Source: Rhodothermales bacterium | Lineage (GTDB): Bacteria; Bacteroidota; Rhodothermia; Rhodothermales; DATKEJ01 | Assembly: GCA_965222505.1 (NCBI GenBank) | Contig: OZ244956.1 | Location: forward strand, 3,412,674-3,476,673 | Direction: 5' to 3' | DNA: 64,000 nucleotides | Shown: one piece after another, positions 2,838 through 57,892 of the stretch | Layout of the letters: every line of letters begins with the position of its first letter | Position numbering within the stretch: the first letter of the stretch is position 1 | Notes under the pieces: generated by a model | What the model saw: only the letters and a program-made list of their open reading frames with translations | Told to the model about the DNA's origin: nothing | The model's database searches: none | Translations under genes and position numbers: made by a program

Positions 2838-2858
2838 CAATCACCAATCACCAATCGT
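2838..2858 (+). repeat. Heptamer array CAATCAC x2 + CAATCGT (CACCAAT subfamily), 9 nt before ATG 2867
   Basis: Read directly: ttccaatcaccaatcaccaatcgtcag. Confidence 0.8.
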
Positions 2859-2866
2859 CAGTCTCC

Positions 2867-3277
2867 ATGGGTATCCTCAAAAAAATTCCGTACCTCGGCT
2901 TTATCTTGATCGCTTACAACATTTTGATTATCGCCAGCGGGAGTTCTGCAGTGGATGAATTGGGGGCCACGGTGTTTTCGGCGCGGCTTATTTCCGGGGC
3001 ACAGCTCACGTTGACGGTCGGGCATCTGTTCATCATCTTCGGGTTGGTGGCCCTCTTTCTGGAAATCGTGGCGGCTGTCAAGTCATCCCTGGATACCGTC
3101 GTGGATCATGCCGTTTCCATGATTGTGTTTGTGATATTTCTTATCCAGTTTATTGTGATGGCCAAAGCCGGCACGGCCACCTTTCTCATCCTCACCATCA
3201 TGGCTCTGCTGGATGTGATTGCAGGCTTCACCGTGTCCCTCTCCACGGCCCGACGGGATATTAATCTGGGTGATTGA
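2867..3277 (+). CDS. Small hydrophobic membrane protein (about 4 TM), unknown function
   Basis: Start at ATG 2867 (MGILKKIPYLGFILIAYNILII...), followed by four hydrophobic stretches. The longer 2639 start overlaps the upstream CDS and is Pro/Thr-rich shadow sequence. Confidence 0.55.
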   Translation: MGILKKIPYLGFILIAYNILIIASGSSAVDELGATVFSARLISGAQLTLTVGHLFIIFGLVALFLEIVAAVKSSLDTVVDHAVSMIVFVIFLIQFIVMAKAGTATFLILTIMALLDVIAGFTVSLSTARRDINLGD

Positions 3278-3288
3278 TCTATGATACC

Positions 3289-3849
3289 TCAGGCGAACAA
3301 TTCGGCCAGGGGGATTTGCAGAGCTGGAAGGGCCCTGGCTTGTAGCGTCTGGCCGGTGCCGTATACGGTTTCTTGCTGATATCCTGTTGCGGAAGGTTGG
3401 GTGTACACCTTGATGGTGCGATCCTTGACATCGACGAGCCAAAACTCTTGAATGCCTGCCTTGGCGTACAGCGGCGCTTTGGTTTGCCGGTCGTACCGCA
3501 GGGTAGAATGCGATACTTCGATCAGGAGAAACACATCCTCAGGCTCGGCCAGGCGGTCGGCATACCGGGTGTCTGGGCGGCGGAGCAGGGCAAGGTCCGG
3601 TTCGGGAGCGGAATGATCGGCTAGGCGAAACGTGTTTTGAACGCTGACAATGGCTTCCGCATCCACTTGTAGGATGCAGAGACGTGTAAGCCGGTTGACA
3701 CACATGATGTGCGGACTTCCGGCGGAGAGCATGAGCATAATTTTACCATCAATAAGTTCGATGCGCTCCTCGGGGTGGAACAGGCCAGATTCGGCCATTT
3801 TGAGGTATTCCTCGACGGTGAAGGGGCGCTGGATGATTGCAGTTTCCAT
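3289..3849 (-). CDS. Uma2 (DUF820) family putative endonuclease
   Basis: FTVEEYLKMAESG..ERIELIDGKI..M..AGSPH, PEPDLALL, FLLIEVSHSTLRYDRQTKAPLYAKAGIQEFWLVD. Internal ATG at 3849 chosen (METAIIQRPF...). Confidence 0.75.
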   Translation of the reverse strand: METAIIQRPFTVEEYLKMAESGLFHPEERIELIDGKIMLMLSAGSPHIMCVNRLTRLCILQVDAEAIVSVQNTFRLADHSAPEPDLALLRRPDTRYADRLAEPEDVFLLIEVSHSTLRYDRQTKAPLYAKAGIQEFWLVDVKDRTIKVYTQPSATGYQQETVYGTGQTLQARALPALQIPLAELFA

Positions 3850-4040
3850 AGCTTGAACAGATTTGGATGGCACACTATTAAACGAAACAGCTAAAGGGAA
3901 CGTTTCTACAGCACAGGTTGATGGGGGATCTTTTTGTTTTATTTCAGGACAAAATCCTGTATTCTGTTCTCTCCAGGTCACTTACTGCCCGGCTGACTTC
4001 TCCGCCTCTCGACCCCCCCCAATACCCAGACGTAACCCTC

Positions 4041-5603: not shown

Positions 5604-5607
5604 AAAT

Positions 5608-5742
5608 GATGCGTGTTGCCTGAGGAAGCAGGTCCCTGATCTAGAGCCAGCTGAAGCACGTTCCACCTTGGACAAGTAAAGGTTGCATTGTCGGCCTTTA
5701 GGATTGGGAACAAGATCACGCAACACGCATCACGCAACAGAT
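5608..5742 (+). repeat. Long-loop inverted repeat plus ACGC-type heptamer array between the HMGR and acyltransferase genes
   Basis: GATGCGTGTTGC (5608-5619) is the perfect reverse complement of GCAACACGCATC (5720-5731). Right-side units ATCACGC|AACACGC|ATCACGC|AACAGAT end 6 nt before ATG 5748. Confidence 0.8.
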
Positions 5743-7043: not shown

Positions 7044-8284
7044 TGCGGTGTATGATGGGAGAAGTCTTGTCCGATATTGCCCTCTGGAAGTATGCCAGCA
7101 TCCCGGTGGTTGCAGCGTTGGTAGGATGGTCTACGAACTGGGTGGCCATCAAACTGTTGTTTTTTCCGGTCAAGCCGTTGGGATGGCCGCCGTTCTTCGG
7201 GTGGCACGGCATCATTCCCTCGAAGGCGGGCAAAATGGGAGCCATTACCACAGATACCACACTCAGCAAGCTCGGCAGCTTGAAAGAGATGTTCGGGGCG
7301 ATGGAGCCGGACCTGATCGCGACACATTTGGTGGACACCATCAACCCCCAGATCGAGACCTTGGTGGACGAGTTGATGCAGCAGGAAAACCCACAGGTCT
7401 GGGACCTGGTCCCGCACACCGCCCGGCTGGTGATTCATGAACTGGTGCGGATTCGGCTACCGGAAGCGATTCGGGAGATGATGCACGATGTGGGTGTGCA
7501 TATCGAGGAGATGATGGACCTCAAGGAGATGGTGGTGCAACACCTCGAAGCCCATCCGCAGATCGTCAACCGAATCTTTCTGGAATGCGGCGATGCCGAG
7601 TTTAAGTTCATCATCCGCTCCGGGCTGTATTTCGGGTTTCTGTTCGGACTGATTCAGATGGGCATCTGGATTTTATACCCGGCCTGGTGGATACTGCCGC
7701 TGTTCGGGGTGATTGTGGGGTATGCAACCAACTGGATCGCGCTACGGATCGTCTTCCAGCCGCTTCGGCCCCGGAAGATCGGGCCGTTTATCGTGCAAGG
7801 CTTGTTTCTGAAACGGCAAAAGGAAGTCTCTGGCGTATGGTGCGGCATCGTCACACGGGAAGTGCTGACCATACACAACATCATCGAAGCGATGTTGCAC
7901 GGCAGCCGGGCCGAACATACCCGTGGGGTGGTGCGCCGCCATATCCGAAAAGTGGTGGATGAATCGCTGGGGATCACCCGGCCCGTGGTGCAATTCACCG
8001 TTGGGTCCAAGGCGTATGCACACCTGAAAGAGTCCGTATCCGAGCAGGCCATGCTGCTTACGTCCACGGCCTTCAACGATCCCCAGTTTAATGAGGACCG
8101 TGCGCAAGTGGTGCAGGGATTGATGCAGGGCCGTATGGAAGCCCTCTCCTCCGAAGAATTTCAATACCTGCTCCGCCCGGCATTCGAGGAAGAGGAACTC
8201 AAACTCATTCTGATGGGCGCCTTGCTCGGTTTCGGAGCCGGATTGGCCCAACTGTTCTGGGTGTTTGGTGGAGGAGGGGTTTGA
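7043..8284 (+). CDS. DUF445 (YheB-like) family membrane protein
   Basis: Duplicated signature GWSTNWVAIKLLFFP / GYATNWIALRIVFQP plus GIIPSKAGKMG. The ATG overlaps the upstream stop (TGATG at 7041-7045). Confidence 0.6.
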   Translation: MRCMMGEVLSDIALWKYASIPVVAALVGWSTNWVAIKLLFFPVKPLGWPPFFGWHGIIPSKAGKMGAITTDTTLSKLGSLKEMFGAMEPDLIATHLVDTINPQIETLVDELMQQENPQVWDLVPHTARLVIHELVRIRLPEAIREMMHDVGVHIEEMMDLKEMVVQHLEAHPQIVNRIFLECGDAEFKFIIRSGLYFGFLFGLIQMGIWILYPAWWILPLFGVIVGYATNWIALRIVFQPLRPRKIGPFIVQGLFLKRQKEVSGVWCGIVTREVLTIHNIIEAMLHGSRAEHTRGVVRRHIRKVVDESLGITRPVVQFTVGSKAYAHLKESVSEQAMLLTSTAFNDPQFNEDRAQVVQGLMQGRMEALSSEEFQYLLRPAFEEEELKLILMGALLGFGAGLAQLFWVFGGGGV

Positions 8285-8390
8285 TTGGTAATTGGTGATT
8301 TGTGATTGGTGATTTAGGGGGAAACGAAATCAATGACCAATCACCAATGATCATTGACAATTGACAATCGACCATTGACAATTGACCATT
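8284..8390 (+). repeat. Compound heptamer array: ATTGGTG-type arm, loop, CACCAAT-type arm, then TGACAAT/TGACCAT units
   Basis: gattggt|aattggt|gatttgt|gattggt|gattt-agggggaaacg-aaatcaa|tgaccaa|tcaccaa|tgatcat|tgacaat|tgacaat|cgaccat|tgacaat|tgaccat. ATTGGTGATT (8291-8300) is complementary to AATCACCAAT (8339-8348). Confidence 0.85.
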
Positions 8391-8469: not shown

Positions 8470-9030
8470 ATGGGAATTTCTGATTATGTAAAAAAGGGCA
8501 TGGAAAAGGCCGACGAACTGGCCGATAGCCTGAAGGAAAAAGCGGAAGACGCAATGGAATCCGTTGCACCCCTCACGGAGAACCTGAAGGAAAAAGCCGG
8601 AGCTGCTATGGATCAGGCCGGGGAATGGACAGACAACCTGAAGGAAAAAGCCAGTGATGCCTTCGGGGGCGACAGCTACCTGGAGAAAGCCCAGGACCTG
8701 TACGCCATGTGCGGCGAAGGCAAAATGATGGATGCTTTCGAGAAATACTATCACGACGATGTGGTGATGATCGAAGCCACCGGCGAAACCACGGAAGGCA
8801 AAGCCGCCAACCGCGAGCGGGAGATGAAGTGGATGGAAAATGTGCAGGAGATGCACGGTTTCGGGCACACCGCCACCACGGCCAATGAGGAGGACAAGGT
8901 AACGATGTGCGAAAGCTGGATGGAAGTCACCTTCAAGGATGGCAACCGCATGAAGCTGGAACAGGTCGCCGTACAACGTTGGGAAGGGGACCACATCATT
9001 CATGAGCGGTTCTACTACAACGCCCCATAA
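8470..9030 (+). CDS. NTF2/SnoaL-like domain protein with N-terminal 18-aa LKEKA repeats
   Basis: The C-terminal ~110 aa match the SnoaL-like pattern (AQDLYAMCGEGKMMDAFEKYYHDDVVMIEA...VAVQRWEGDHIIHERFYYN). The N-terminus has three repeats xLKEKAxxA. Confidence 0.6.
   Translation: MGISDYVKKGMEKADELADSLKEKAEDAMESVAPLTENLKEKAGAAMDQAGEWTDNLKEKASDAFGGDSYLEKAQDLYAMCGEGKMMDAFEKYYHDDVVMIEATGETTEGKAANREREMKWMENVQEMHGFGHTATTANEEDKVTMCESWMEVTFKDGNRMKLEQVAVQRWEGDHIIHERFYYNAP
8529..8690 (+). repeat. Three tandem 54-bp coding repeats (CCTGAAGGAAAAAGC core)
   Basis: The core CCTGAAGGAAAAAGC occurs at 8529, 8583 and 8637, an exact 54-nt spacing. It encodes xLKEKA repeats. Confidence 0.8.
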
Positions 9031-9036
9031 AGTAGT

Positions 9037-9096
9037 ACGTATTGCGTATTGCGTAAAGAACACCGTCCTTACGCAATACGCAATACACAATACGTT
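9037..9096 (+). repeat. ACGCAAT-type heptamer hairpin (18-bp perfect stem) ending at ATG 9097
   Basis: 9039-9056 GTATTGCGTATTGCGTAA pairs perfectly with 9069-9086 TTACGCAATACGCAATAC. The loop is 12 nt. The array continues acacaatacgtt up to the ATG. Confidence 0.9.
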
Positions 9097-9795
9097 ATGA
9101 TCCACATCACGCGGACCCATCATCTGTCGCCGGAGGCGGCACGGCAGCGCGTTCAGGTCATGGCACAAACCCTGGCCGAAGAGATGCGCCTGACTTACCA
9201 TTGGGAAGGGGACCGGCTGTTGTTCAAACGCTGGGGGGCCAAAGGATCGATTGATCTCCACCCCGGCATCGTAGATGTACACGTCAAAACCAGTCCGTTT
9301 TTGCCGATTTCGGAAGCGGGTCTCCGCCGGGAGATCGAGCGCCGTATTGACGAAGCCTTGCTTGAATCGGAGAAAAAACCCCTCGAACCTGAGGCAGCAC
9401 CTAAAGCCAAGCCCGAAGGAGGAGAAGCCTCGCCATTGGCCGGGTTACTTGGACAAGCCATCAGCCTCACCGGCCAGGTGGTCAACCTGGGGGCCCAGAC
9501 CTTGACCTCGGCGGGTATGCTGCCCTCGTTTGAATCATTTGTTGAGGCCGGGTCGCATTTGCGGGCGGCGCGTCAACATGCGGGCCTTTCGCTTCAGGAA
9601 TTGAGCAAGGCCCTGGATGTGCAGGTCCCGTTCATGGAAGCCGTCGAAAACGGCACTGCCCACCTCACCGCCGAACTTATCACGCGCATCTCCGACCTGC
9701 TCGCCCAAAACGATTCTGCTCAACTGGCCCAACGCCTGGCAGAGGTGTACCAATCCGGTCACACCAAGCCCCCCCCCGAATCCCTTCCACCCTAA
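9097..9795 (+). CDS. Putative polyhydroxyalkanoic acid system protein (PHA_gran_rgn-like) fused to a C-terminal XRE-type HTH
   Basis: MIHITRTHHLSPEAARQRVQVMAQTLAEEMRLTYHWEGDRLLFKRWGAKGSIDL fits the TIGR02610-type pattern. The C-terminus LRAARQHAGLSLQELSKALDV is HTH-like. ATG 9097 follows a hairpin. Confidence 0.55.
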   Translation: MIHITRTHHLSPEAARQRVQVMAQTLAEEMRLTYHWEGDRLLFKRWGAKGSIDLHPGIVDVHVKTSPFLPISEAGLRREIERRIDEALLESEKKPLEPEAAPKAKPEGGEASPLAGLLGQAISLTGQVVNLGAQTLTSAGMLPSFESFVEAGSHLRAARQHAGLSLQELSKALDVQVPFMEAVENGTAHLTAELITRISDLLAQNDSAQLAQRLAEVYQSGHTKPPPESLPP

Positions 9796-16638: not shown

Positions 16639-19600
16639 TCATAGACGCTCCTCCCAAGACCAGCCGAGGGTTTCGGCCTGTTGGATCACTTTTTGGACGG
16701 CTTCTTCTTGTTGGTCAGGGGGATAGCCGTGGCGGCGGAGCAGGCGCTTGACCCGTGCCCGCATTTTGGCGCGGACGGCTTCCTTTTCGGACCAATCAAT
16801 GGAAACGGAGTTACGTACGGTTTTAACCAGGTCCGCTGCAATGGCGCCGAGGACATCATCATTCATCACCTCTTGCACGCCCTCCTGGGCCACAAGGGCA
16901 TCGTAGAAGGCCAGTTCATCGTCGGTCAAACCCAACTGTTGTCCCCGGCCTTTGGCCGCCTGCATCTCTTGGGCCATTTCGATCAGGGTGGCAATGATTT
17001 CGGCGGCTTCAAGGGTTCGGTTCTGGTATTTGCGAATGGTTTCCTGGAGCATGTCTGAAAACCGTGCGGCCTGCACCACATTTCTGCGCCGTTGCGTTTG
17101 AATCTCATCTTCGAGCAAACGCCGCAGTAACTCGACCTGTAGATTTTTATGCGGATGGGTGCGTACGGTTTGCAGGAACGCATCGGAGAGTATCGACAGG
17201 TCCGGCTTATCGATGCCGGCGGTGGCAAATACGTCGATCACGCCATCGGTGATCACGGCCCCGGAGACGAGTTGCTTGATCGCCAGGCCCAGGGCTTCCT
17301 GGTTGGTTCGTTTGGAACCGGGGCTGGGCTTGCGCAGGCTCTTTTGGATTTGCTGGAAAAAGCCGATCTCGTCCAGGTAACTTCGTGCCCCCTCCAGATG
17401 GACCGCGAGGGCGGCGGCTTTATTGAGGCGGGTCATGGCCTCTTTGAAACGCTGCTCGCCCGGTGTGTCGCCCACCGGATCCAGGCCGAGCACGTGGTCC
17501 ATCGCCGCCTGTAAAACCTCCAACCGGTCTGCGTTTCCGCCGGTGAAGTAGCGGCTGTAGTCGAACCCGAAGAACAGGTCCCGCACGATGCCCAACTCGG
17601 TGCGGAGCACGGCCAGGGCTTCTTCGGTCGGGAGGGCGGCGCGTTCCCGTTTGCCGCCGTAGACCTCGACCGCTTCGCGCAGGTGCTGGGCCACGCCGAG
17701 GTAATCCACCACCAGGCCGCCCGGCTTGTCTTTGTAGATGCGGTTGACGCGGGCGATGGCCTGCATCAGCGAATGGCCCTTCATGGGCTTGTCCAGGTAG
17801 AGCGTGTGGGCGCTCGGCACGTCGAAGCCGGTCAGCCACATGTCCCGCACGATCACCATGCGAAGGGGGTCCCGTCCGTCGGCCTCGGCTTCTTCGATGG
17901 GTTCCTTGAACCGCTTTTCGATCAGTTTCCGGCGCGGTTTGTTGCGGACGTGCGGGATAAAATCCGGCGGGTCGCTCGCGGAGCCGGTCATGACGATCTT
18001 GATCTGCCCGGCCTCGTCTTGGTCGGCGTGCCATTCGGGCCGGCGGCGGATGAGCTCCCGGTAGAGGTCTACGCAGATGCGCCGGCTCATGCACACGATC
18101 ATGGCCTTACCCTCCAGGATTTCCGTGCGCCGGTCGTAGTGGTCCAGGAGGTCTTGGGCCACCAGCTTCAGGCGCTTTTTGAGGCCGACGATGGCTTCGA
18201 TCCGCTTCCAGGAGCTTTGCAGCTTCACCACTTCTGCAGCCTCTTCATCCTCGGTCACTTCCTCAAAGGCTTCGTCAAGCACCGGCAGCCGGGCCTCGGG
18301 CAAATCGACGGCGGCCAAGCGGCTTTCGTAGTAAATGGGCACCGTGGCCCCGTCTTCGATGGACTCGCTGATGGTGTAGGTGTCGATGTAGTCCCCGAAC
18401 ACCTCCGGCGTGGACCGGTCCTCAAACTCAATGGGCGTGCCGGTAAAGCCGATGTAGGTGGCCTTCGGTAGGGCATCTCTCAGGTTACGGGCGAAGCCGT
18501 CGATAAATTCGTACTGGCTGCGGTGGGCTTCATCCACAATCACCACCACATTGCGCCGTTCGGTCAGCGTGGGCATGCGCTCCCCCTTTCGGGTGCCGAA
18601 TTTCTGAATGGTGGTAAACACGATCCCGCCGCTGGCCACCTGGAGCAGGTCGCGCAGGTGGTCCCGGCTTTCGGCCTGGGTGGGTTGGGGGAGGTGGTCT
18701 CGGGCGGTGGTAAACTGGCCGAACAACTGCCCGTCGAGGTCGTTGCGGTCGGTCAGGATTACCAGGGTCGGGTTCGCCAGGGCCGGGTGCTGGATGAGCT
18801 TGCCGGCGAAAAAGACCATCGACACGCTCTTGCCGGACCCCTGGGTGTGCCACACCACCCCGGCCCGCCCGTCGCCGCCCTGCTTGGTAGCCGCAACAGT
18901 GGCTTCGACCGATTTGTTGACGGCGTAATACTGATGGTAGCCGGCCACTTTTTTGATGAACCGGCCCGTATCGGCATCTTGCACCCAGAAACCGAAGTAG
19001 CGCAGGTAGTCCAGAAACCGGCCCCGGTCGAACAACCCTTCGAGCAGGGTCCGCAGGGGCGGGGCATGTTCGGGGACAGGGGTGGTGCCATCGACGGTGC
19101 GCCACGGGCCAAACCGTTCCAGCGGCGCAGTGAGGCTACCCATCTGGGCCTCGGTGCCGTCCGAGATGACCAGCACGCCGTTGGTATAAAAGAGCTGGGG
19201 GATTTGCCGCTTGTAGGTTTGCAACTGGTTCCACGCACCGTCCAGGGTGGCCTGGGGATCGGTGGGGTTTTTGAGTTCGAAGACGGCCACCGGCAAGCCG
19301 TTGAGGTAGACGATCAGGTCCGGGCGGCGTGCGTTGCGGTGGGTCTGGAAGCCGACGATGGTCAGTTGGTTGACCACCAGCCAGTCGTTGTTGTCCGGAC
19401 GCTCAAAGTCGATCAGCCACGCCAGATCCCCCCGGTTGCGGCCTTTGGCATCGCGCCATTCCACCTCGATGCCCCGGGTGAGCATGCGGTGAAAGACCAC
19501 GTTGTTTTCTTCGAGCGAGGGGCTGTTGAGGTGTAGCACGGCTCGTGCCGCCGCGTCCAGCGCTGCCGCCGATAGGCCGGGGTTGATCCGGCCCAACGCC

Positions 19601-19761: not shown

Positions 19762-19792
19762 GGCACTTCCGGGTTCGCATGGGCAATGGGCC

Positions 19793-20101
19793 TTAACCGA
19801 TCTCACCGGGCAACGCACCAAATTGACGCGATGCGTGGAAGACCGTCAGCACCTCGATCCTGCCTTCCTCGGGTAAGTAGATGTAAATGATCCGGTAGTT
19901 GCGGTGAATAATCTCCCGCATGTTTTTCTCGCCGATTTCTGGAACTGCACGGCCCGATGCAGGAAATGTTTTCAGACGCTCCGTGACATGCATAAGTTTG
20001 CGAACCAGCACTTCAGCATAACCCGGAGCGTTTTGCGCATGGTAGGCACCGATGGCTTCGAGATCTGCATAGGCACGTGGGGTCCAAACTAGGGTTGCCA
20101 T
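19793..20101 (-). CDS. RelE/ParE family type II toxin
   Basis: 102 aa. WTPRAYADLEAIGAYHAQNAP...FPASGRAVPEIGEKNMREIIHRNYRIIYIY...IEVLTVFHASRQF is a ParE-like pattern. It overlaps the upstream small ORF by 13 nt. Confidence 0.8.
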   Translation of the reverse strand: MATLVWTPRAYADLEAIGAYHAQNAPGYAEVLVRKLMHVTERLKTFPASGRAVPEIGEKNMREIIHRNYRIIYIYLPEEGRIEVLTVFHASRQFGALPGEIG

Positions 20102-20292
20102 GATGTGATCTGTGCTTCGATCCGACGTTTGACCTCCTCGTGAGAAATGGTTTCTCCGCGCTGGGCTTGTGCCAGTCCTTGCTCGATCTTACTGAGGAGG
20201 AGCAGCCGCTCAATGGCATCTTCAATCGTGGCGTCCTCCGGTAAGCCAGCGACGGCCTCGACGATGTGGCCTTTGGAGATGGTAGCAGGCAT
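20089..20292 (-). CDS. Putative antitoxin partner of the ParE/RelE toxin
   Basis: 67 aa from ATG 20292 (MPATISKGHIVEAVAGLPEDATIEDAIERLLLLSKIEQGLAQAQRGETISHEEVKRRI). Classic overlap with the toxin start. Confidence 0.6.
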   Translation of the reverse strand: MPATISKGHIVEAVAGLPEDATIEDAIERLLLLSKIEQGLAQAQRGETISHEEVKRRIEAQITSWQP

Positions 20293-21757: not shown

Positions 21758-23354
<1,597 letters not shown>

Positions 23355-23787: not shown

Positions 23788-23789
23788 CG

Positions 23790-45284: not shown

Positions 45285-47432
45285 TCAAGGTAAACTGGAC
45301 ATGGAGGGAATATGCCGCATAAGTATTTTTAGATCCAACCCGGCAGACTGATGTTGGGCGTATTCCCAGTAGGCGCGGCGGAGTGCGGTCTCGTCCATGG
45401 ACTCAGCGGCGGGGACCACGGGAAACACGCCGGGGCGTAATTCCCATTCTTCTGGTGGACGGTAGGCATGATCGGCATCGTAGCCGACGAGTGTCTTTCG
45501 CCCGGTCAAAACCTTGGGCAACTGGGCGGCACAGGCTTTCAGGCGAGCGAAACGTGGGCCACCGGGTACACGGGCCAGCACGGCCAACATCGGATACAAA
45601 AGCAGCCCCAAAATGGCAATGGGCCAGGAGACCAACCGCCGCGTCCAGGCACTCCGGGGCAAGTGTATGGTTTGCTCGGCCTCCACCAGCGATGGTCCCC
45701 CGAGATCCCCGATGTACGCTTTGCCGATCACATACTGCTGGTCTTCGGGTAACATCTTGAACTCGACGGGCAGATCCTGCAGGTTGTGCATGGCCTGAAA
45801 GATCAACTCATTCGGGAGCCGCCCGGCTGTAAAGATCACATCGTCAATGTGCCGAAGCCGAACGATGTCTCGCAACTGATCCAGATGGCCCAGCAGGGCC
45901 AGAGTCTGGACTTTGCTCTTCGGCTTCGCCTCTGTAGAGGTCGGCGGGATATAGCCGATCAGGTCAAAGGGAGGTTGCGGCATCGATTGCAAGTGGCGTT
46001 GCAACCGCCGAACATCGGCGCGTGCCCCGATGAGCAGGGCTTGCCGAAGGCCGATGCGGCGTTCGGTGCGTTCGCGCCGGATCCACCGGAAGATCAACAG
46101 GCCGATGGCAACGGTCAGAAAGCCAAACAGGACCACCGCACGGGAGTAGGCCACGGATTTGACAAAGAACGAAAAGGTCGTGACCAGCAGGAACGCGATG
46201 CCCACACCGGCAATCACCGGCTGAAAGGTTCGGCGTACCCGTCGGCGGTACCCGCCGGCCAGCCCAATGCACCCTACAATGATGAGCGCATAGGCCGGCG
46301 CCACGGCATAATAGAAAAAGGGCGCAAAGGAGAAGTTGATCGGCAAGGATCGGATTTTGGCGACCACCATGATGACCAGGCATGCAAGGAGGCCCTCCCA
46401 GAACGGGATACGCAGCCGACGTACCGTGTTCGCCATGACGGTTTGGGCCGCACGGAGCAGAATGCCGGTGTGCAGGGTGGCCGCAAATAGTTTCGAGTAG
46501 CGGTCGTGGAAGTGTTTTTGGACGAACTGGATCATGGCCCCGTAAAAGAGGCGCACGTAGCGCAACTCGCCCCGTTTGGTGCTTTCGCCTTTGTAGTGGA
46601 TGATCTGGGTATCCGGCGTGTAGTAAATTTTCCAGCCTGCCTCTTTGATGCGGAAGCACCAGTCCAGGTCTTCACCGTACATGAAAAAGTCTTCGTCAAA
46701 CAATCCGGCTCCGCCGGGCGGTGCCTGTGGTGGGGTAGCGGATTCGGCATCGGAAGATTCCCAATCGAACCGGGGATGATCGGCGTTGCGGTATAAGGCG
46801 GCGCGGCGGACCATCATACAACTCCCGCTGAGGGCATCCACCTCGGCCACCTGATCGATGGGCAGATAGGTCATGTTGTACCGCCCGAACCGCTTGCTTT
46901 TGGGAAAAAGCCGACTCAGGCCGCTGATGCGGTAGAAGGCCACCTCCGGGGTCGGGAAGGCCCGGCGGCTTTCGCGGGCAAAGGTCCCGTCCGGGTTCAG
47001 GATGCGGCATCCTGTGGCTCCGGCATCCGGGTGGGCCTCCATGAAGTCGATCATGGTGGTGAAGGAATCTTCCTGAACGATGGTGTCCGGATTGAGGATC
47101 ATCAGGTACCGACCCCGCGCCTGCCGGATGGCCTGGTTATTGGCCCTGCCAAAGCCCACATTGTCGGTATTGGCAATAACGTGTACGTCCGGGTACATCG
47201 TTCGTACCATGTCTACGGAGCCGTCGGCGGAGTTGTTGTCCACCACAAACACTTCCATTGTGAGGCCGTTTCCTGCCCGCAGCACGGAGTCCAGCGCCTG
47301 CTTCAAGAACTCCTGCACGTTGTAATTCACAATCACCACCGACAGGTCCAGGACCGGGGCTTCCGTAGCAACCGGAGATTGAGGGGGCGATGTGGGGGAA
47401 GCGAAGGGCAATCTTGAATGGTCAATGGTCAA
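45285..47432 (-). CDS. Family 2 glycosyltransferase fused to a polytopic membrane / WcaJ-like CoA-binding-type region
   Basis: N-terminus LSVVIVNYN...VVDNNSADGS...GFGRANNQAI...LNPD (GT2). Then ~5 TM and LIGARADVRRL...DLIGYI...IDDVIFTAG. The start is uncertain: there is no in-frame ATG, and the candidates are TTG 47432 or TTG 47411, both in or next to a heptamer array. Confidence 0.7.
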   Translation of the reverse strand: MTIDHSRLPFASPTSPPQSPVATEAPVLDLSVVIVNYNVQEFLKQALDSVLRAGNGLTMEVFVVDNNSADGSVDMVRTMYPDVHVIANTDNVGFGRANNQAIRQARGRYLMILNPDTIVQEDSFTTMIDFMEAHPDAGATGCRILNPDGTFARESRRAFPTPEVAFYRISGLSRLFPKSKRFGRYNMTYLPIDQVAEVDALSGSCMMVRRAALYRNADHPRFDWESSDAESATPPQAPPGGAGLFDEDFFMYGEDLDWCFRIKEAGWKIYYTPDTQIIHYKGESTKRGELRYVRLFYGAMIQFVQKHFHDRYSKLFAATLHTGILLRAAQTVMANTVRRLRIPFWEGLLACLVIMVVAKIRSLPINFSFAPFFYYAVAPAYALIIVGCIGLAGGYRRRVRRTFQPVIAGVGIAFLLVTTFSFFVKSVAYSRAVVLFGFLTVAIGLLIFRWIRRERTERRIGLRQALLIGARADVRRLQRHLQSMPQPPFDLIGYIPPTSTEAKPKSKVQTLALLGHLDQLRDIVRLRHIDDVIFTAGRLPNELIFQAMHNLQDLPVEFKMLPEDQQYVIGKAYIGDLGGPSLVEAEQTIHLPRSAWTRRLVSWPIAILGLLLYPMLAVLARVPGGPRFARLKACAAQLPKVLTGRKTLVGYDADHAYRPPEEWELRPGVFPVVPAAESMDETALRRAYWEYAQHQSAGLDLKILMRHIPSMSSLP

Positions 47433-47498
47433 TGGTCAATGGTCAATTGTCAATTTGTCTTTTCATTGACCATTGACAATCGACAATCGACAATTGAC
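47417..47498 (+). repeat. (AATGGTC)x4 + degenerate units, loop, inverted (CATTGAC/AATCGAC/AATTGAC)x5: long heptamer hairpin in the GT2-MATE divergent region
   Basis: Four perfect AATGGTC units at 47417-47444, then AATTGTC. Right arm 47464-47498. GTCAATG/CATTGAC are complementary unit by unit. Confidence 0.9.
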
Positions 47499-47548
47499 TA
47501 TTCTCAAAAGTTATGTGCTGATTCCATAGTATATAAACCAAAAACCCG

Positions 47549-49758: not shown

Positions 49759-49761
49759 AAA

Positions 49762-51110: not shown

Positions 51111-51950
51111 ATGAGCTCCAAAACCCACGCCCGGCACGTTTTATCCACCTTGCGCACGGTTATTCCGAAGCCCGAAACCGAACTCACCTACGGCACCCCG
51201 TTTGAGTTGTTGGTATCCGTCATTCTTTCCGCCCAGTGTACCGACGAGCGAGTCAATAAGGTTACCCCGGCGCTGTTCGAAGCCTTTCCCACAGCGGACG
51301 TCATGGCGCAGGCCGAGGCGGAAGCCATTTTTCCATACATTCGGTCGGTCTCCTATCCCAACAACAAGTCCCGACATCTGGCCGGTATGGCCCACATGTT
51401 GATGGATGATTTTGAGGGGGCAGTGCCTTCATCGTTGGAAGATCTGGTGAAGTTACCGGGGGTGGGGCGGAAGACCGCCCAGGTGGTGGCCTCGGTCGCG
51501 TTCGACATTGCGGCGCTGCCGGTGGATACGCACGTGTTCCGGGTGGCCAACCGCATCGGTCTCGCAGATGAAGCCCCAACCCCGCTGGCTGTTGAACGCC
51601 AACTCAAGGCCCGCATTCCCGAGGCGGAGTGGGGCGATGCCCATCACTTGTTGATTTTACACGGTCGGTACACCTGCACGGCCCGTAAGCCCAAGTGTAC
51701 CGATTGTGCCCTGCCGGAATATTGTCGGTACTACGCCGCCCTGCAAACCCTGCCAGGCCCCATCCAGGGACTGAACATGCGGAAGGGAAAGTATTTCTGC
51801 AGCACGTGCGGCACCTACTTCAAAACCCCCGCCCATCACACCGACGCGCAAGGCATCAAACAGATCGCCTGCCCCGCCTGCCGAAATGTGGAAGTGCACC
51901 TCACCAAAACCGGCTTGACCACGCAGAAGGTAAGGGATTACCGGGTTTAG
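51111..51950 (+). CDS. nth: Endonuclease III with a ~74-aa C-terminal zinc-ribbon extension
   Basis: PFELLVSVILSAQCTDERVN, LPGVGRKTAQVV, VDTHVFRV. FeS cluster CTARKPKCTDCALPEYC (C-x6-C-x2-C-x5-C). Extra tail with CSTC...CPAC. Confidence 0.9.
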   Translation: MSSKTHARHVLSTLRTVIPKPETELTYGTPFELLVSVILSAQCTDERVNKVTPALFEAFPTADVMAQAEAEAIFPYIRSVSYPNNKSRHLAGMAHMLMDDFEGAVPSSLEDLVKLPGVGRKTAQVVASVAFDIAALPVDTHVFRVANRIGLADEAPTPLAVERQLKARIPEAEWGDAHHLLILHGRYTCTARKPKCTDCALPEYCRYYAALQTLPGPIQGLNMRKGKYFCSTCGTYFKTPAHHTDAQGIKQIACPACRNVEVHLTKTGLTTQKVRDYRV

Positions 51951-54076
51951 GCGGACAATCCAACGTTATCCAAAAGCGCCTGAAACCGCGGATCGGCGCG
52001 TACCGGATCGTAAGCAGGCCATAGGTGCAACAGGACCAGCGCGGTATCCCGCTCGTTGAAGGCGTGCATTAGCCAGCGAAAGGCCTGATCTTGCTCCTCC
52101 AGGGCCAGGTAAATACCTGCCACGATAGAAGACAGGACGTGTTGCTTTTCAGCAAGAACGTGCAACTCCGCTATGACCTTGTGCGCTTCATCGGGCTGGT
52201 GTTGCTTGGCATAGAGTGCACCAAGGCGTCCGAGAATAATCGGCCGACGCCCAATCAGGTTGCGTACGCACTGGTATGCCTCGTGTGCTTCGTTGAGGCG
52301 ATCCGTAAACAGGTAGGCATCGCCGAGGAAGAGGGGGGCGATATAAAGACGGGGCTCCATCTCATGGGTTTGCAGGAACAGATCGATGGCTTCTTCATAT
52401 CGTCGCGCCGCCAGCAGCCAGATCCCTCTAGCCACACGGGGCATGATCCAGAAGGGATCCAGTACCTCTCCACGTTTGGTGAGCGCGAGGGCCTCCTCGG
52501 ATTGTTCTCTTAATACCAGGTAGCTCGCATAGTTGCCGATGGTATCCAGGTTGTCTGGATCAAGGGCCAACGCCTGCTTGAAAGCGTCTTCGGCTCCCGG
52601 TCCGTCCCACTCAAAGGCAAGGTATGTGTAGGCGAGCGCTAGGTGTGCCTCTGAAAGTCGGTTGTTCAAGGCTAGTGCCTTTTCGGCAGCGTCTCGTGCC
52701 AGTGGGTAGGCGTGGTGTGGCGCAAACACATCGTAAAGAAACCAGCCCCCAAGGGCATAGGTAAAGGCCAACGCAGCATAGGCCTGCGCGTAGTTGGGGT
52801 CACGCGCAATGGCCTGCTGGAAGGACGCACAGGCTTTCTTAATGTCTTCTGGCGTACGCCTGCGGCGTAGGAAAAGTCCTTTCAGATACAACGTATGAGC
52901 CTCCATATCCTGCGTAGGAGGCAATGCCCGTTGCTCGGGTGCCTGGAGCAATGCTACGTGCAAGGTTTCAGCGACGGATTGCGCAATTTCGTCCTGGATG
53001 GCAAAGATATCGTGCATCGCCCGGTCGTAGCGTGCAGACCAGAGGTGATAGCCATCGGTGGCATTGATCAACTGGACTGTGATGCGCAGTCGCCCGCCCG
53101 CCCGGCGTACGCTGCCTTCAATCACGAAATCTACGCCCAGTTTTTGGGCCAGGTCTCGAAAATCAAGCGACTGGTTCTTAAAAGCAAAGACGGTTGTTCT
53201 GGCCGCCACGCGCAGCCCTCTATTCTGCGCCAGGACATTGATGATCTCCTCGGTCATGCCATCACAGAAGTACGCTTGCTCCGGGTCCGCGCTCAAGTTG
53301 TCGAAGGGCAGTACGGCCACCGACGGTTGGGTCTTTTCACCCGGAGGCAGAACCGAGGCGGTTGGGACCTGGAGGCGAGCAGCGAATGCCTGGGTCTCTT
53401 TAGCAGGGGTGAGGTCGAGGTCCTGCGCCAGCCGTCGTGTGAATGTTTGATAGGCCCGGAGTGCCCCGGTCCGGTCGCCGAGGCCGTCCAGCAGATTCAT
53501 GAGACGTTTTAGCGCGACTTCGTTATCCGGTGCAAGTTCAAGCAGACGGCGTAGCCAGTGTACAGCTCCGGTTGGATTGCCCACAACTTCCTCTCGTTCT
53601 GATAAAGAAGCCGTGGCTTCGGTGGCCTGATGGTGGAGGCGTTCGCGCTCTATCTCCAGCCAGTACTCAAAAGCAGGGGCCGCGCTGACATGCAAGCCGT
53701 CCAGCAGAGGGCCTCGATAGACCTCAAGGGCCTTCGTGAGGGTGTCGTTTTGAAGGGCTTGCTGGAAAGCCAAGACGTCGCACCAAAGGATTTCCTGCGA
53801 CAAACGCAGTTCCTCAGCCCCCTGGCTAATGATTACCGCTTTGTCCATCGTGCGCCGGAGCCAATGCACGGATTGACTTAGCGCGTTGCGTGCGTGCGCC
53901 TCATCCAGGTCTGGCCAGAACAAGGCCAGCAGCGTATCGCGTCGGCAAGATCCCGTTGGCGCCAGGGCAAGGTAGGCCAGCAAGGCCAGACGCTTGGGTT
54001 GCAGATGCACCCTGTTGGCCCCTTCGCTTGCCGTACGCCGAAGGTTGGGAGTGCCAAGGATTCGAAGTTGAATCAT
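51947..54076 (-). CDS. SARP/BTAD-type transcriptional regulator fused to a TolB-N-like domain and TPR repeats
   Basis: N-terminal winged-helix plus BTAD (LALLAYLALAP...LLALFWPDLDEAHARNALSQSVHWLRR; VYRGPLLDG). SVAVLPFDNLSADPEQAYFCDGMTEEII. C-terminal TPRs. Confidence 0.7.
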   Translation of the reverse strand: MIQLRILGTPNLRRTASEGANRVHLQPKRLALLAYLALAPTGSCRRDTLLALFWPDLDEAHARNALSQSVHWLRRTMDKAVIISQGAEELRLSQEILWCDVLAFQQALQNDTLTKALEVYRGPLLDGLHVSAAPAFEYWLEIERERLHHQATEATASLSEREEVVGNPTGAVHWLRRLLELAPDNEVALKRLMNLLDGLGDRTGALRAYQTFTRRLAQDLDLTPAKETQAFAARLQVPTASVLPPGEKTQPSVAVLPFDNLSADPEQAYFCDGMTEEIINVLAQNRGLRVAARTTVFAFKNQSLDFRDLAQKLGVDFVIEGSVRRAGGRLRITVQLINATDGYHLWSARYDRAMHDIFAIQDEIAQSVAETLHVALLQAPEQRALPPTQDMEAHTLYLKGLFLRRRRTPEDIKKACASFQQAIARDPNYAQAYAALAFTYALGGWFLYDVFAPHHAYPLARDAAEKALALNNRLSEAHLALAYTYLAFEWDGPGAEDAFKQALALDPDNLDTIGNYASYLVLREQSEEALALTKRGEVLDPFWIMPRVARGIWLLAARRYEEAIDLFLQTHEMEPRLYIAPLFLGDAYLFTDRLNEAHEAYQCVRNLIGRRPIILGRLGALYAKQHQPDEAHKVIAELHVLAEKQHVLSSIVAGIYLALEEQDQAFRWLMHAFNERDTALVLLHLWPAYDPVRADPRFQALLDNVGLSA

Positions 54077-54751: not shown

Positions 54752-54803
54752 TCCTTGCTCCTCTAGGCGCAAAAAAATTACATTTCACCCCGCACCCCGC
54801 ACG

Positions 54804-57674
54804 TCACTCCGGCATCAGCACAAACCGGGCGTAGCGTTGTGGGTTGAGGTAGGCGCGGGCGGCTTGCTGAATGGTTTCTTCGTCGAAGGTGGCCAGGATG
54901 TTGGCGGAGCCTTCTAGAATCAGGCGGGGGTCCTGGGTGTACCGGTCGGCGTATTGGAGGGAGCGGAGCCAGTAGCCGTTTTCCCGAAGGTTGGTTTCGT
55001 GTGATCGCAGGCTGGTTTCTCGGACTTTTTCGAGGTAGGATACGTCAATCCCGAAGGTCTGGAGGCTGTCGATCTGGGTGAAGATGGTTTGGGTTAGTTC
55101 TTCTACCCGTTCCGGATCACATCCAAAGCTGATGTTGATGCGGTACAACGGCTCTGGATCACGCACGGAGGAGCCGCTGATCCGTACCCCGTAGGTGCCG
55201 CTCAGGTCTTCCCGCATGACCTCGCGGAGCTTGATGTTCATCACTTGCGTGAGGGCAAACAGTTCGAGGCGCTGTTCCCGACCCCATTCAAACGGCCCCG
55301 TAAAGGCCATATTGACCCGGCTCTTGGGTTCAAGCCCTTTGCGGATGGTTTTTTCGATGACCCCGTCCGGGGGGCGGATGCCGGTGTCCCGCCAGGTTTC
55401 CTCCCGGTTTATGTCCGGCAGGGTACCGAGGTACGTAGCGGCCAGGGTTTGGAGTTGATCCACGTCGAAGGTGCCGACGAAGTAGAACGTAAAATCGCTC
55501 AGGTCGGCGAAGCGGTCCTGGTAGAAGCGTAGGGAACCTTCCAGGTCCATCGCATCCAGGGTGGCCTGGGTGAAGGGGCGGCGGCGCGGGTGGTATTGCG
55601 CCATCGTGACGGTGATGGTGTCCCGAAACGCATTTTCCGGCGAGGCTTTATATCCCAGTACCAGATCACCCAGGCGCTGCTTATAGGACGCATAGGCGGT
55701 GGAATCGGCGCGGGGGGCCACGACGTACAGGTGGATCAACTGAAACAGCGTTTCCAGGTCTTCCGGCGAGGCCGAGCCGTTAAAACCTTCGGAAAAGGCC
55801 CCAATGGTCGGGCTCACGTTCAGCGCCTTGCCGGCCAGTTTTTTCTCCAGTTCAATCGGCCCGAAGGTTCCCACCCCACTCTGCCCGATGAGATCATCGG
55901 CGAACAGGGCCGGGATGTAGCCTTCATCCGGGGCCAAAGAGTTGCCGCCGGGGCTGGTGGCGGAAAAGATCACCTGGTCATTTTTGAAGTCGGTGGGTTT
56001 CATCACTAGGCGCACACCATTTTCCAATGTGATACGCGTGACCCCCAGGACGGAGTCGGTTTGGGTTTCAATGATGGCAGCCGGGACGGGTACATCCGGC
56101 ACCAGGGGTGCATCGGAGACGGCGTCTTCATAGGGCGTAATAGCCAGGGTGTCGATGCTGTCGAACACGGCCAATACGTCGGCCTGGGTAGGCAGCGTGA
56201 CACCGGGTTTTTCAGGGCCGTCAACGGTGATCACGCGGTTTTCGTCTGTAATCCAGCGGCTGGCGAGGGCGTTGACTTCTTCCAGTGTGATGGAAGGCAG
56301 CATGTCTTGTGCCATCGCGTACGCCCGTTCGATACCTGGGGTTGGGGTTTCCTCCAGAAAATGTCCGACATAAATGCCGGCATATCGGGCAGATTCGGTC
56401 TTGTCTCGTTCGGCATAGCCCCGCTTGAACTGGCGGAGGAGTTCGGCTTTTTGCCGTTCCAGTTCTGTGGTTGTAAAACCGTGCCGACGTACACGCTCGG
56501 CTTCGGTGAGCAATGTGGTGAGGGCACGGATGAGTCTGGCTTCCGGGGCGACTGCGTTCAGGCTGTAGAAGTCTTTGCCCCGTACGAAGGAAGACAGGCC
56601 GGCACCGGCAAACAGATATGGGGGGTCGACCTGTTGGGTCAGCTCACCGAGGCGGGTGTTGAGCATCACATCATAGAGCATCTGGGTCAGGAATTTCCGG
56701 TAGCCGCTGGTGGTCGGGTCGGGCTTGGCATCGTGCTTGTAGAGTACGCCGATGGAGGCATAAGCGGCTTCCGGGTCTGTGGCCTCGGCAAAGAGGGTTT
56801 CCGGGTGGCCCGGCACCGGATGCGTGGTGCGCGGACGCGGCGTGGCCGGATTGACCAGGTCGCCGAAGAGGGTTTTGATGTACGTCTCGATGTCAGTCGG
56901 GTCAAAATCCCCAACGGCTACCACGGCCATCAGGTCGGGCCGGTACCAGTCGCGGTAGTAGCGCACCAGTGCCTCGTGGGTAAAGGATTTCAGGCTTTCG
57001 GCTGTGCCAATGGGGAGACGGTTGGCGTAGTGGGAGCCTTGCAAGAGGATGGGGAATTGTTTGTCCTGCATCCGGGCATCGGCCCCGCGCCCGAGCCGCC
57101 ATTCTTCCACGACCACCCCGCGTTCCTTGTCGATTTCTTCCGGTTCAAAGCTGACTTCACCCGCCCAATCCCGCAAAATCTGGAAGCCGGTTTCCAGCAG
57201 TTTCGTGCTGTCCGTGCGGACCTTCAGCATGTAGACCGTTTCGTCGAAACTGGTGTAGGCGTTCAAATCCGGTCCAAAGCGGGTCCCGACCGATTCCAGG
57301 TAATCCACCAGGGCTTGTTTCTCAAAATTCGTGGTGCCGTTGAAGGCCATGTGTTCGACCACGTGGGCCAGGCCGCGTTGATCCTCGTCTTCCAGAATGG
57401 AACCTGCATTGAGCACCAGCCGCAATTCGGCCCGGTTCCGGGGGCGTTCATTGGGACGGATGTAGTACGTCAGTCCGTTGACCAGCGTCCCTTTCCGGAC
57501 CGCAGGGTCCAGGGGCAGCCGATCCAGGGTATCCGGCAGCGTCGGGACCGGGTGTACCTCGGTGGTTTCATCCGGTGGGGCCGGGGGGAGGGTCGTGATG
57601 GTACGGGGCGAGCGGCAGGCCCAGAGGCCGAGGCTCAGGGCAAGGACCCAAACGGTGCGGGGCAGTCGAGACAT
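54804..57674 (-). CDS. M16 family (pitrilysin-like) zinc peptidase, fused double-module form
   Basis: GLAHVVEHMAFNGT (HxxEH). ~956 aa with a second inactive M16 half. Signal/lipobox LSLGLWAC. ATG 57674. Confidence 0.88.
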   Translation of the reverse strand: MSRLPRTVWVLALSLGLWACRSPRTITTLPPAPPDETTEVHPVPTLPDTLDRLPLDPAVRKGTLVNGLTYYIRPNERPRNRAELRLVLNAGSILEDEDQRGLAHVVEHMAFNGTTNFEKQALVDYLESVGTRFGPDLNAYTSFDETVYMLKVRTDSTKLLETGFQILRDWAGEVSFEPEEIDKERGVVVEEWRLGRGADARMQDKQFPILLQGSHYANRLPIGTAESLKSFTHEALVRYYRDWYRPDLMAVVAVGDFDPTDIETYIKTLFGDLVNPATPRPRTTHPVPGHPETLFAEATDPEAAYASIGVLYKHDAKPDPTTSGYRKFLTQMLYDVMLNTRLGELTQQVDPPYLFAGAGLSSFVRGKDFYSLNAVAPEARLIRALTTLLTEAERVRRHGFTTTELERQKAELLRQFKRGYAERDKTESARYAGIYVGHFLEETPTPGIERAYAMAQDMLPSITLEEVNALASRWITDENRVITVDGPEKPGVTLPTQADVLAVFDSIDTLAITPYEDAVSDAPLVPDVPVPAAIIETQTDSVLGVTRITLENGVRLVMKPTDFKNDQVIFSATSPGGNSLAPDEGYIPALFADDLIGQSGVGTFGPIELEKKLAGKALNVSPTIGAFSEGFNGSASPEDLETLFQLIHLYVVAPRADSTAYASYKQRLGDLVLGYKASPENAFRDTITVTMAQYHPRRRPFTQATLDAMDLEGSLRFYQDRFADLSDFTFYFVGTFDVDQLQTLAATYLGTLPDINREETWRDTGIRPPDGVIEKTIRKGLEPKSRVNMAFTGPFEWGREQRLELFALTQVMNIKLREVMREDLSGTYGVRISGSSVRDPEPLYRINISFGCDPERVEELTQTIFTQIDSLQTFGIDVSYLEKVRETSLRSHETNLRENGYWLRSLQYADRYTQDPRLILEGSANILATFDEETIQQAARAYLNPQRYARFVLMPE

Positions 57675-57802
57675 GGTAGGCGGATTTAGCAAGTATAAGA
57701 GACCGAACGGTGTATGCCGTCCCTGCGTTGGGGTTTCGATGGGGGAAGATTTGTGCCAGACGGTAATGTGTTTTCCGAAAAGCCGTACCTTGGAAGGAAG
57801 AT

Positions 57803-57892
57803 TAGTGGTGATTGATGATTGGGCATTTACTCTGTTAGTCGCTACGCTCGTTTGTGATTGCAAACTCGAAAGTCACCAATCACCACTTACCA
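57803..57892 (+). repeat. Heptamer inverted repeat (ATTGGTG-type / CACCAAT-type) in the M16-membrane protein divergent region
   Basis: AGTGGTGATTG (57804-57814) is the perfect reverse complement of CAATCACCACT (57877-57887). Units tagtggt|gattgat|gattggg and gtcacca|atcacca|cttacca. Confidence 0.8.

Follow-up and report, generated by a model that had tools for sequence, protein, structure and literature searches.

The stretch analysed here, 64,000 nt of contig OZ244956.1 (hereafter the window), comes from a member of the Rhodothermales, its aconitase being closest in a homologue search to Rhodothermales/Bacteroidota proteins from metagenome-assembled genomes (MAGs; best match 81%). The window has a GC content of about 58%, is about 95% coding, and was annotated for Pfam domains across some 50 open reading frames (ORFs). 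Its spacers carry a real, non-coding and strictly 7-nt-periodic repeat family. Repeats of this kind are already described as heptanucleotide long simple-sequence repeats (the short tandemly repeated repetitive/long simple-sequence repeat, or STRR/LSSR, class) and are functionally unexplained; new here are the Rhodothermales lineage, the unit set, a polarity rule for arms next to start codons and a handedness rule for hairpins. Three unit families share a CAAT core: A, CACCAAT/ATTGGTG (sites S1, S3a, S7 and S10); B, ACGCAAT/ATTGCGT with ACGCAAC variants (S2, S4, S5, S6 and S8, plus a doubtful 9-mer at 62807); and C, ATTGACC/ATTGACA (S3b, as a direct array, and S9). The sites are as follows, with the strand given where an array has one.

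S1, 2837-2856, plus strand: direct (CACCAAT) x2.9 without an inverted partner, with no G and nine C on the sense strand, 10 nt before an ATG; it fills the 34-nt spacer from an amidohydrolase gene end (2832) to the ATG of a small ORF (2867).
S2, 5' arm, 5607-5623: TGATGCGTGTTGCCTGA, beginning 4 nt past the HMG-CoA reductase stop (5603).
S2, 3' arm, 5716-5739: ACGCAAC/ACGCATC units, 8 nt before the acyltransferase ATG at 5748, with a 92-nt spacer to the partner at 5607-5623.
S3a, 8284-8349: imperfect hairpin, beginning at the DUF445 stop (8282-8284), whose loop separates (ATTGGTG) x4.5 from (CACCAAT/GACCAAT) x3.
S3b, 8350-8390, plus strand: direct (ATTGACA/ATTGACC) x6, 79 nt upstream of the ATG at 8470.
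S4, 9026-9099: palindrome with (ATTGCGT)n and (ACGCAAT)n arms and a core of 18-19 bp, occupying the entire spacer from the stop of a SnoaL-like gene (9028-9030) to the ATG of a PHA_gran_rgn/HTH gene (9097).
S5, 23897-23922, minus strand: single degenerate arm reading TTTCCCTTACGCATTACGCAACACGC on the minus strand, 34 nt upstream of a tRNA-Ala gene (23789-23862, minus).
S6, 5' arm, 24188-24221: GTGTTGC/GTGCTGC units.
S6, 3' arm, 24313-24347: (ACGCAAT) x3.6, 17 nt before the aconitase ATG at 24365 and 91 nt from the 5' arm.
S7, 27358-27454: composite of ATTGGTAATTTG, a non-heptamer box and two arms, ATTGGTA/ATTGGTG at 27402-27419 (5') and CACCAAT/CACCAAC at 27429-27454 (3'); ATTGGTAATTTG lies immediately 3' of the stop of a truncated peptidase remnant, and the site ends 5 nt before an epimerase ATG (27460).
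S8, 31146-31169, minus strand: single degenerate arm between two minus-strand genes, 43 nt upstream of the start of a GH3 gene (31102, minus).
S9, 47417-47502: hairpin with a 9-nt loop separating (GGTCAAT) x5.4 from (ATTGACC/ATCGACA) x5.4, in the spacer of the divergent GT2 (minus) and MatE (plus) genes.
S10, left arm, 57804-57822: GTGATTG/ATGATTG units adjoining the start region of an M16 peptidase gene (minus); the site as a whole lies between divergent genes.
S10, right arm, 57869-57929: CACCAAT/CACCACT units (57873-57893) and a non-heptamer box, running to the ATG at 57930.
S11, 62807-62815, plus strand: a single GCGTGTTGC 9-mer, a weak and doubtful member.

By the Pfam annotation S1, S2 and S4 occupy short co-directional spacers, S3 follows a gene end and S7 follows the truncated peptidase remnant.

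Tandem Repeats Finder called period-7 arrays at 2837-2856, 5717-5739, 8282-8314, 8353-8390, 9038-9055, 9070-9094, 24323-24347, 27431-27468, 47417-47454 and 47465-47502, so that each strong site is matched by such a call, exactly or to within a few bases. They span 2.6 to 5.4 units by the same program; S3b counts six in the list above. The pattern CAAT-N3-CAAT-N3-CAAT matches eight times in the window, against 0.00 in 100 shuffles, and CAAT-N3-CAAT 24 times against 2.5 expected. In a scan of periods 4 to 13, seven strong arrays appeared at period 7 and none at 4-6 or 8-13, with shuffles giving about zero. A previous reading of the window from its sequence only had proposed a heptamer-periodic intergenic family at these positions, and so it proves, period 7 being the only enriched period and far above chance. 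Its site list stands for the strong sites; 23897-23922 and 31148-31169 are weaker, each a single degenerate arm, and 62807 is weak, consisting of one 9-mer that occurs five times in the window (0.96 expected), once inside a gene. Its placement of the arrays outside confidently called genes also holds: a relaxed threshold gave 11 period-7 segments at 10 spacers, 10 of the 11 outside coding sequence, and the eleventh overlaps only an extended TTG form of an ORF, upstream of the likely start ATG 57930.

The longest ORFs at 9049-9795, 24203-27100, 27403-28446, 45285-47432 and 54804-57863 extend through arrays to TTG or GTG codons within the repeats. These false upstream starts arise because the arrays contain no stop codons, and gene callers that maximise ORF length would misplace starts at array-bearing genes. 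The start at 9097, directly after S4, exactly matches that of database protein P0001.

Seven sites are inverted pairs whose best arms are 13-19 nt long and 92-95% complementary, and the claim that most arrays face an inverted copy and can form hairpins is confirmed there. The pairs are 5607-5623/5716-5732 at S2 (17 nt, 94% complementary), 8286-8308/8331-8353 at S3a (23 nt, 83%), 9037-9055/9077-9095 at S4 (19 nt, 95%), 24188-24221/24313-24346 at S6 (34 nt, 76%), 27403-27419/27430-27446 at S7 (17 nt, 94%), 47418-47434/47464-47480 at S9 (17 nt, 94%, or 38 nt at 79%) and 57804-57818/57873-57887 at S10 (15 nt, 93%). No inverted partner was found for S5 or S8. Predicted RNA folding energies range from -31 to -72 kcal/mol for site regions of about 75 to 190 nt. 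The S4 palindrome, at -34.5 kcal/mol, spans 9026-9099 overall, and its outer pairs join CATAA, which overlaps the stop, with TTATG, which includes the start.

Some segments have been copied between sites. The S7 segment 27361-27420 and the S10 segment 57869-57929 match in inverted orientation at 84% over 61 nt, of which about 40 nt, ACAGTCGGCT(T)ACGCCTCGTGTG, are not heptameric. Each copy of the duplicate borders a gene boundary as well as a CACCAAT-type arm, and the whole may be a composite dispersed element. S5 and S8 have 21 nt in common at 95% identity. The common minus-strand motif, TTTCCCTTACGCATTAYGCAAYAC, precedes tRNA-Ala by 34 nt and the GH3 glycosidase gene by 43 nt, a spacing that would be expected of a promoter-region element. 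Two other short repeats lie in window spacers: a palindrome at 61184-61210 (TTTCAAT-TCCG-ATTGAAA, then ATTG) in the divergent UbiA/phosphoglucomutase spacer, which resembles a one-unit version of an array hairpin, and a different period-7 repeat, (CACCCCG) x2.4, at 54786-54802, where the SnoaL and M16 peptidase genes converge on a 52-nt spacer. Neither of the two convergent spacers in the window holds a CAAT-type array.

Several known architectures can be set aside, largely as the sequence-only reading had anticipated. The Rfam search it had suggested returned no family for the arrays, only tRNA-Ala in the window reaching the gathering threshold; in E-value mode S4 gave a 32-bit match to a miRNA hairpin model with a threshold of 90 bits, and the aconitase region gave no match. 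No T-run follows the stem of any hairpin, in line with the reported lack of U-tracts, and the terminator scan lists none of the array hairpins except for a partial minus-strand match inside S3. Contiguous 7-nt units are also unlike CRISPR arrays, which have repeats of 24-48 nt and unique spacers. No transposase domain, RAYT-type (associated with repetitive extragenic palindromic, or REP, sequences) or other, was found in the roughly 50 window ORFs.

Comparison with other genomes indicates that the arrays come and go. In the nearest relative (locus L001) the gene order from tRNA-Ala to aconitase is kept and the arrays are absent. Across 356 kb of 23 other Rhodothermales loci there are two CAAT-type arrays, (CGTGTTG)4 in L009 and (ATTGCTC)3.5 in L021, as against eight in the 64-kb window, and none was found in about 1 Mb of loci from other phyla. 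A Chloroflexota MAG (L023) carries a heptamer hairpin at 2140-2225, (CAGTNNN)4, a loop and (ACTGACC/ACTGAAA)7, placed exactly between the TATAAT box and the AGAGGTG ribosome-binding site of its aconitase gene. Heptamer arrays thus lie upstream of aconitase in three of about 80 aconitase loci (L009, L021 and L023), which is suggestive but may reflect array-rich genomes. A conserved aconitase leader was considered and rejected, since L001 is array-free, although these three loci carry arrays at that position.

The same architecture recurs in metagenomes. A strict hairpin pattern, ATTGGTGATTGGTG-N(4-34)-CACCAATCACCAAT, was found in 74 metagenome contigs with GC contents of 38-70%. No window gene has an ortholog above 44% identity on the array-bearing contigs, which come from other organisms. 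Among the 50 hairpins with both flanks assigned, 39 are placed stop-hairpin-start, eight start/start and three stop/stop, and the median distances are 5 nt to the stop and 20 nt to the start. Convergent spacers are depleted, with 3 of 50 hairpins against a baseline of 18% in the same contigs (p=0.026). One 24-nt hairpin loop is identical at four distinct metagenome loci.

Stop-proximal stems raise the question of whether these are RNA 3'-end elements, namely terminators without a U-tract or barriers to exonucleases, with the direct arrays as decayed halves. The closest precedent would be the REP sequences and bacterial interspersed mosaic elements (BIMEs) of enterobacteria and pseudomonads, dispersed imperfect palindromes found at many loci in spacers between co-directional genes and common at convergent gene ends, which are tied to RAYT transposases and expected to affect mRNA ends and stability. 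Like them, the arrays here form palindromes of tens of nucleotides, with the same element at many loci. Stems of 13-19 bp, at the predicted energies given above, start 0-5 nt past the stops at S2, S3a, S4 and S7, as do metagenomic hairpins at a median of 5 nt; the probable aconitase terminator in the window likewise lacks a T-tract, and a promoter-like array and an AT-rich stretch lie 3' of S3a. However, REPs have no internal 7-nt periodicity and no RAYT-type or other transposase was found in the window. Convergent spacers, where only terminators are needed, are under-represented rather than enriched, both in the metagenomes (3 of 50) and in the window, whose convergent spacers lack CAAT-type arrays. 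The next start, at a median of 20 nt, leaves no room for a promoter, S6, S9 and S10 lie in promoter-type spacers without an upstream gene end, and G-U pairs show no bias to the sense strand. We consider this explanation unlikely.

The G-U count concerns pairing more generally. Selection for RNA-level pairing was considered and rejected, as 39 oriented hairpins hold 45 G-U pairs in the sense direction and 73 in the antisense direction; in the window stems S4, S6 and S7 a manual check found the G-U direction mixed. Since G-U pairs are not enriched on the mRNA strand, the complementarity looks like that of a DNA-level palindrome and not like an RNA structure kept by selection.

Using our own array boundaries, arrays end 10 nt before the ATG at 2867, 8 nt before 5748, 1 nt before 9097, 17 nt before 24365 and 5 nt before 27460, a range of 1-17 nt that agrees with the 0-18 nt first claimed for these five starts. 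It had also been claimed that, wherever an array could be oriented, the C/A-rich strand is the sense strand of the downstream gene. For hairpins such an orientation is undefined by the ATTG or CAAT arm because a palindrome is identical on both strands; put as a rule of composition the claim holds, as C exceeds G on the sense strand of all 12 start-proximal arms, including both arms of S9 and S10. At S9 each arm is of ATTGACC type, with C above G, when read toward its adjoining gene. ATG, GTG and TTG are all absent from eight of these 12 arms. Hairpins are also handed: the G-rich arm is 5' and the C-rich arm 3' in 5 of 5 arms scored in the window, and G-first arms outnumber C-first by 13 to 1 in collections not chosen for handedness. 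Native leaders in the window are likewise poor in G. The 25 nt upstream of 29 array-free ATG genes average 20% G, 28% A and 29% C, where the window has about 29% G per strand, and motifs resembling the Shine-Dalgarno (SD) sequence are rare in window leaders.

Viral contigs provide a further view of this polarity. Exact 18-mers of family A occur in 24 viral contigs and of family B in 14; by a rough estimate only a few chance occurrences of an 18-mer are expected in that collection. Many of these arrays stand directly before an SD sequence and ATG. For example, one IMG/VR contig (L092, 6048-6125) has 11 units of (CACCAAT)n before AAGGAGG-ATG, and in another (L096) three genes are each preceded by (CACCAAT)n arrays (e.g. 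1526-1548 and 2818-2835). Exact CACCAAT and ACGCAAT arrays in viral contigs are sense over antisense by 12 to 5. Generic arrays of four CAAT-N3 units are common there, with 34 different units and an orientation of 24:16. Given that diversity and weak bias, the CAAT core was rejected as the key feature; it is the G-poor composition that matters. The strict double-unit hairpin has no match in viral contigs. A relaxed handedness test gave two G-first and two C-first raw matches, of which both G-first matches are true stop-hairpin-ATG placements and both C-first matches lie inside AT-rich coding sequence.

Such placement could reflect a post-transcriptional regulon, in which a single RNA-binding protein (a CsrA-like or cold-shock-domain protein, or ribosomal protein S1) recognises the units in 7-nt register and controls translation initiation of every array-bearing gene. 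This was proposed for the TAACTGA repeats of Beggiatoaceae (PMC4679880) and speculated for Nostoc (10.1101/2022.06.06.494920), and it accords with array ends 1-17 nt before five ATGs, with the CACCAAT-type unit directly before SD/ATG at many genes and organisms, phages included, and with the 12 to 5 sense excess of exact viral arrays. Nevertheless a regulon is doubtful, as a single factor would have to tolerate three unit families, or else three factors would be needed, the downstream genes are functionally unrelated, one array precedes a tRNA gene, the arrays are not conserved in L001, generic NNNCAAT viral arrays are biased only 24:16, and an inverted arm would mask the proposed binding site. 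Nor is there backing for a specific leader structure controlling translation initiation, which the sequence-only reading had put forward as a possible role: it finds neither conservation, L001 being array-free, nor strand-specific G-U pairing, and 23897-23922 lies upstream of a tRNA gene, where translation plays no part.

A DNA-level role as promoter or operator may be entertained, in which ATTGACA/ATTGACC units supply phased -35 (TTGACA) and -10-like (GACAAT) hexamers, or in which the arrays of all families are iteron-like sites for a DNA-binding regulator. An array of (TTGACAA)n automatically yields TTGACA-17-GACAAT, and of the sigma-70-like matches in the first 20 kb the best two (10/12; TTGACA-17-GACAAT and TTGACA-18-TAACAT) both fall in S3b, with another at S9, which lies between divergent genes with an ATTGACC arm toward each. 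S5 and S8 stand 34 and 43 nt upstream of the tRNA and GH3 genes. The window also encodes a SARP-like (Streptomyces antibiotic regulatory protein) regulator with Trans_reg_C, BTAD and TPR domains (51947-54076, minus), of a family that binds heptameric direct repeats (PMC5930380); SARP sites, however, are spaced at 11 nt, not 7. Sigma-70-like matches are not enriched in the window, nor is the Bacteroidetes -7 motif TAnnTTTG. CACCAAT and ACGCAAT make poor hexamers, and arrays filling co-directional spacers of 34-66 nt leave no space for a promoter plus leader. Apart from the arithmetic of TTGACAA arrays this reading is speculative, applies chiefly to family C and is very unlikely for the family as a whole.

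Changes in unit number occur between closely related alleles. The comparison of copy number between strains that the sequence-only reading had advised, run on the ATTGGTG...CACCAAT hairpin type in metagenomes, found that alleles L256/L309 and L267, with flanks 96-98% identical, differ by exactly one 7-nt unit (+7 nt). Such indels, also reported for Cyanothece strains (PMC4679880), would be the raw material of contingency loci, at which frequent 7-nt gains and losses switch downstream expression on and off within a population. Here that is extremely improbable: the arrays are short (2.6-5.4 units), their flanking genes encode housekeeping enzymes and not surface or virulence functions, and gaining or losing 7 nt in an untranslated leader would leave every reading frame intact.

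Heptamer repeats have a long history in other bacteria. Mazel and colleagues reportedly described, in 1990, the STRR heptanucleotides CCCCAGT, TTGGTCA and CAACAGT in Calothrix, work that PMC4692102 cites. The claim that the arrays fit no known architecture does not stand, since intergenic heptanucleotide repeats have been published (PMC4679880, 10.1101/2022.06.06.494920, PMC4692102), and by the terms of the sequence-only reading itself a match to a described repeat largely overturns it. In a survey by Mrazek et al. (2007), quoted in both PMC4679880 and PMC4692102, long simple repeats were most often heptamers, and polymerase slippage was put forward as their origin. Nostoc has ATTGCGA heptamer repeats (PMC2408588) and a GAC(C/T)AAT x8 array that overlaps the recO ATG (10.1101/2022.06.06.494920). 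TAACTGA direct repeats occur in marine Beggiatoaceae, some cyanobacteria and five Bacteroidetes (MacGregor 2015, PMC4679880), and GGGAATC and GGGGA(T/C)T heptamers, including inverted pairs, in Xanthomonas and Nostoc (Rehm et al. 2015, PMC4692102). Function was not established for the heptamer repeats in PMC4679880, PMC4692102, PMC2408588 or 10.1101/2022.06.06.494920.

The STRR and Nostoc repeats resemble ours in having 7-nt tandem units, an intergenic location and many copies per genome. GACCAAT, the complement of TTGGTCA, is one base from CACCAAT and is itself present here at 8335-8341; ATTGCGA of Nostoc is one base from our ATTGCGT; and in Nostoc, as here, arrays reach or overlap a start codon. 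Unlike STRRs, which belong to heterocystous cyanobacteria, the present arrays are in a Rhodothermales host, have 3-5 units, are mostly inverted pairs and have a fixed G-first handedness. They fall outside the strict STRR definition (Mazel 1990) in their host and in their units, which differ by at least 1 nt except for the one GACCAAT at 8335-8341. The TAACTGA repeats are also direct heptamers, in 2-6 copies, nearly all intergenic, in "forward" orientation a few nucleotides before start codons in Shine-Dalgarno-poor genomes, with a patchy phylogenetic distribution and indels in 7-nt steps between strains (PMC4679880). They differ in unit sequence from CACCAAT, ACGCAAT and ATTGACC/ATTGACA; of 170 sets only one was inverted, against a majority of the sites here; and they were described without a hairpin or handedness rule (PMC4679880). 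In Xanthomonas and Nostoc heptamers are likewise an over-represented class of simple-sequence repeat, intergenic, variable in length between related strains, with some plus/minus pairs able to form stem-loops or cruciforms and with a proposed origin by slippage (PMC4692102); those units are G-rich and form G-quadruplexes, whereas runs of at most two G or C make quadruplexes impossible here. The handedness rule, the stop-hairpin-start placement and a Rhodothermales case were not found in the heptamer-repeat literature searched.

Given the above, we favour as reasonably probable that the arrays are slippage-prone dispersed heptanucleotide repeats with fast turnover, filtered by compatibility with translation starts. 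Turnover is seen in the array-free L001 and in the scarcity of CAAT-type arrays at other Rhodothermales loci. Replication slippage would expand and contract the arrays, and palindrome duplication or template switching would keep the inverted pairs matched at the DNA level, as the lack of an RNA-specific G-U signature implies. Arrays would survive only where harmless, in non-coding DNA and in one polarity: just before a start codon, the G-poor, C/A-rich strand, mostly without ATG, GTG or TTG, would have to be the mRNA strand. Such a filter would yield direct arrays in sense orientation as well as hairpins with the G-rich arm 5' and the C-rich arm 3'. In mRNA a direct array would give an unstructured leader, and a stop-start hairpin would bring the two codons together and bury the start region, so that downstream expression would probably require either that ribosomes complete the upstream gene (translational coupling) or that the stem be processed. 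These leader and coupling effects are plausible consequences. Periodicity, non-coding location, polarity, turnover, dispersal and 7-nt indels were observed directly, whereas the origin by slippage, the filter and the effects in RNA are inferred.

Several observations weigh against this account of slippage and filtering. The array at tRNA-Ala (S5) obeys the polarity rule though no translation occurs there, and a translation filter leaves the period of 7 unexplained. The CACCAAT/ATTGGTG unit recurs across contigs of 38-70% GC and in phage contigs, which independent slippage does not readily account for and which points to possible horizontal transfer or a binding factor in common; phage genomes being compact, the arrays kept in them suggest some use. 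Not all copies turn over fast, as one hairpin was retained between metagenome alleles with 89-93% flank identity, and the window counts cover 64 kb of a 5.34-Mb genome. It is accordingly conceivable, if improbable, that the ATTGGTG...CACCAAT hairpin and its ACGCAAT/ATTGACC relatives form a horizontally spreading, cross-phylum functional module inserted precisely from stop to start. Such a module would either gate the translation of the cistron that follows or couple it to the one before, or else a conserved nucleic-acid-binding protein would recognise its 7-nt register, and G-first handedness would then be design and not merely a survival filter.

Some neighbouring genes are of note. Between the aconitase terminator hairpin (27108-27131) and S7 lies an orphan C-terminal fragment of an S9/prolyl-oligopeptidase-like gene (27150-27358, plus; ...VVYPRTPHGPREPKLL...), its N-terminal part absent, which is probably a rearrangement remnant beside the repeats. 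An island-like block (16639-23636) adjoins tRNA-Ala (23789-23862) and holds a type I restriction-modification system comprising HsdR (16639-19821), HsdS (20492-21763) and HsdM with an N-terminal PIN_10 domain (21747-23636), along with a ParE toxin gene (19793-20101). A putative Uma2-family (PF05685) endonuclease gene lies at 3289-3981 (minus); cyanobacteria and Chloroflexota, groups rich in heptamer repeats, have very large Uma2 families.

Of all long simple repeats, heptanucleotides show the largest excess in many bacterial genomes; known since 1990, they have no established function or spreading mechanism. The window adds a host new at the level of phylum. The present family offers three testable regularities, a G-poor start-proximal arm on the mRNA strand, a G-rich arm placed 5' and the stop-hairpin-start placement, and the same three are seen for the CACCAAT/ATTGGTG unit in unrelated metagenomic and phage contigs. 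That one unit and one architecture recur across unrelated genomes and phages is the observation most worth experimental follow-up. If a horizontally spreading module does lie behind it, the excess of heptamer repeats in bacteria would gain a functional basis.

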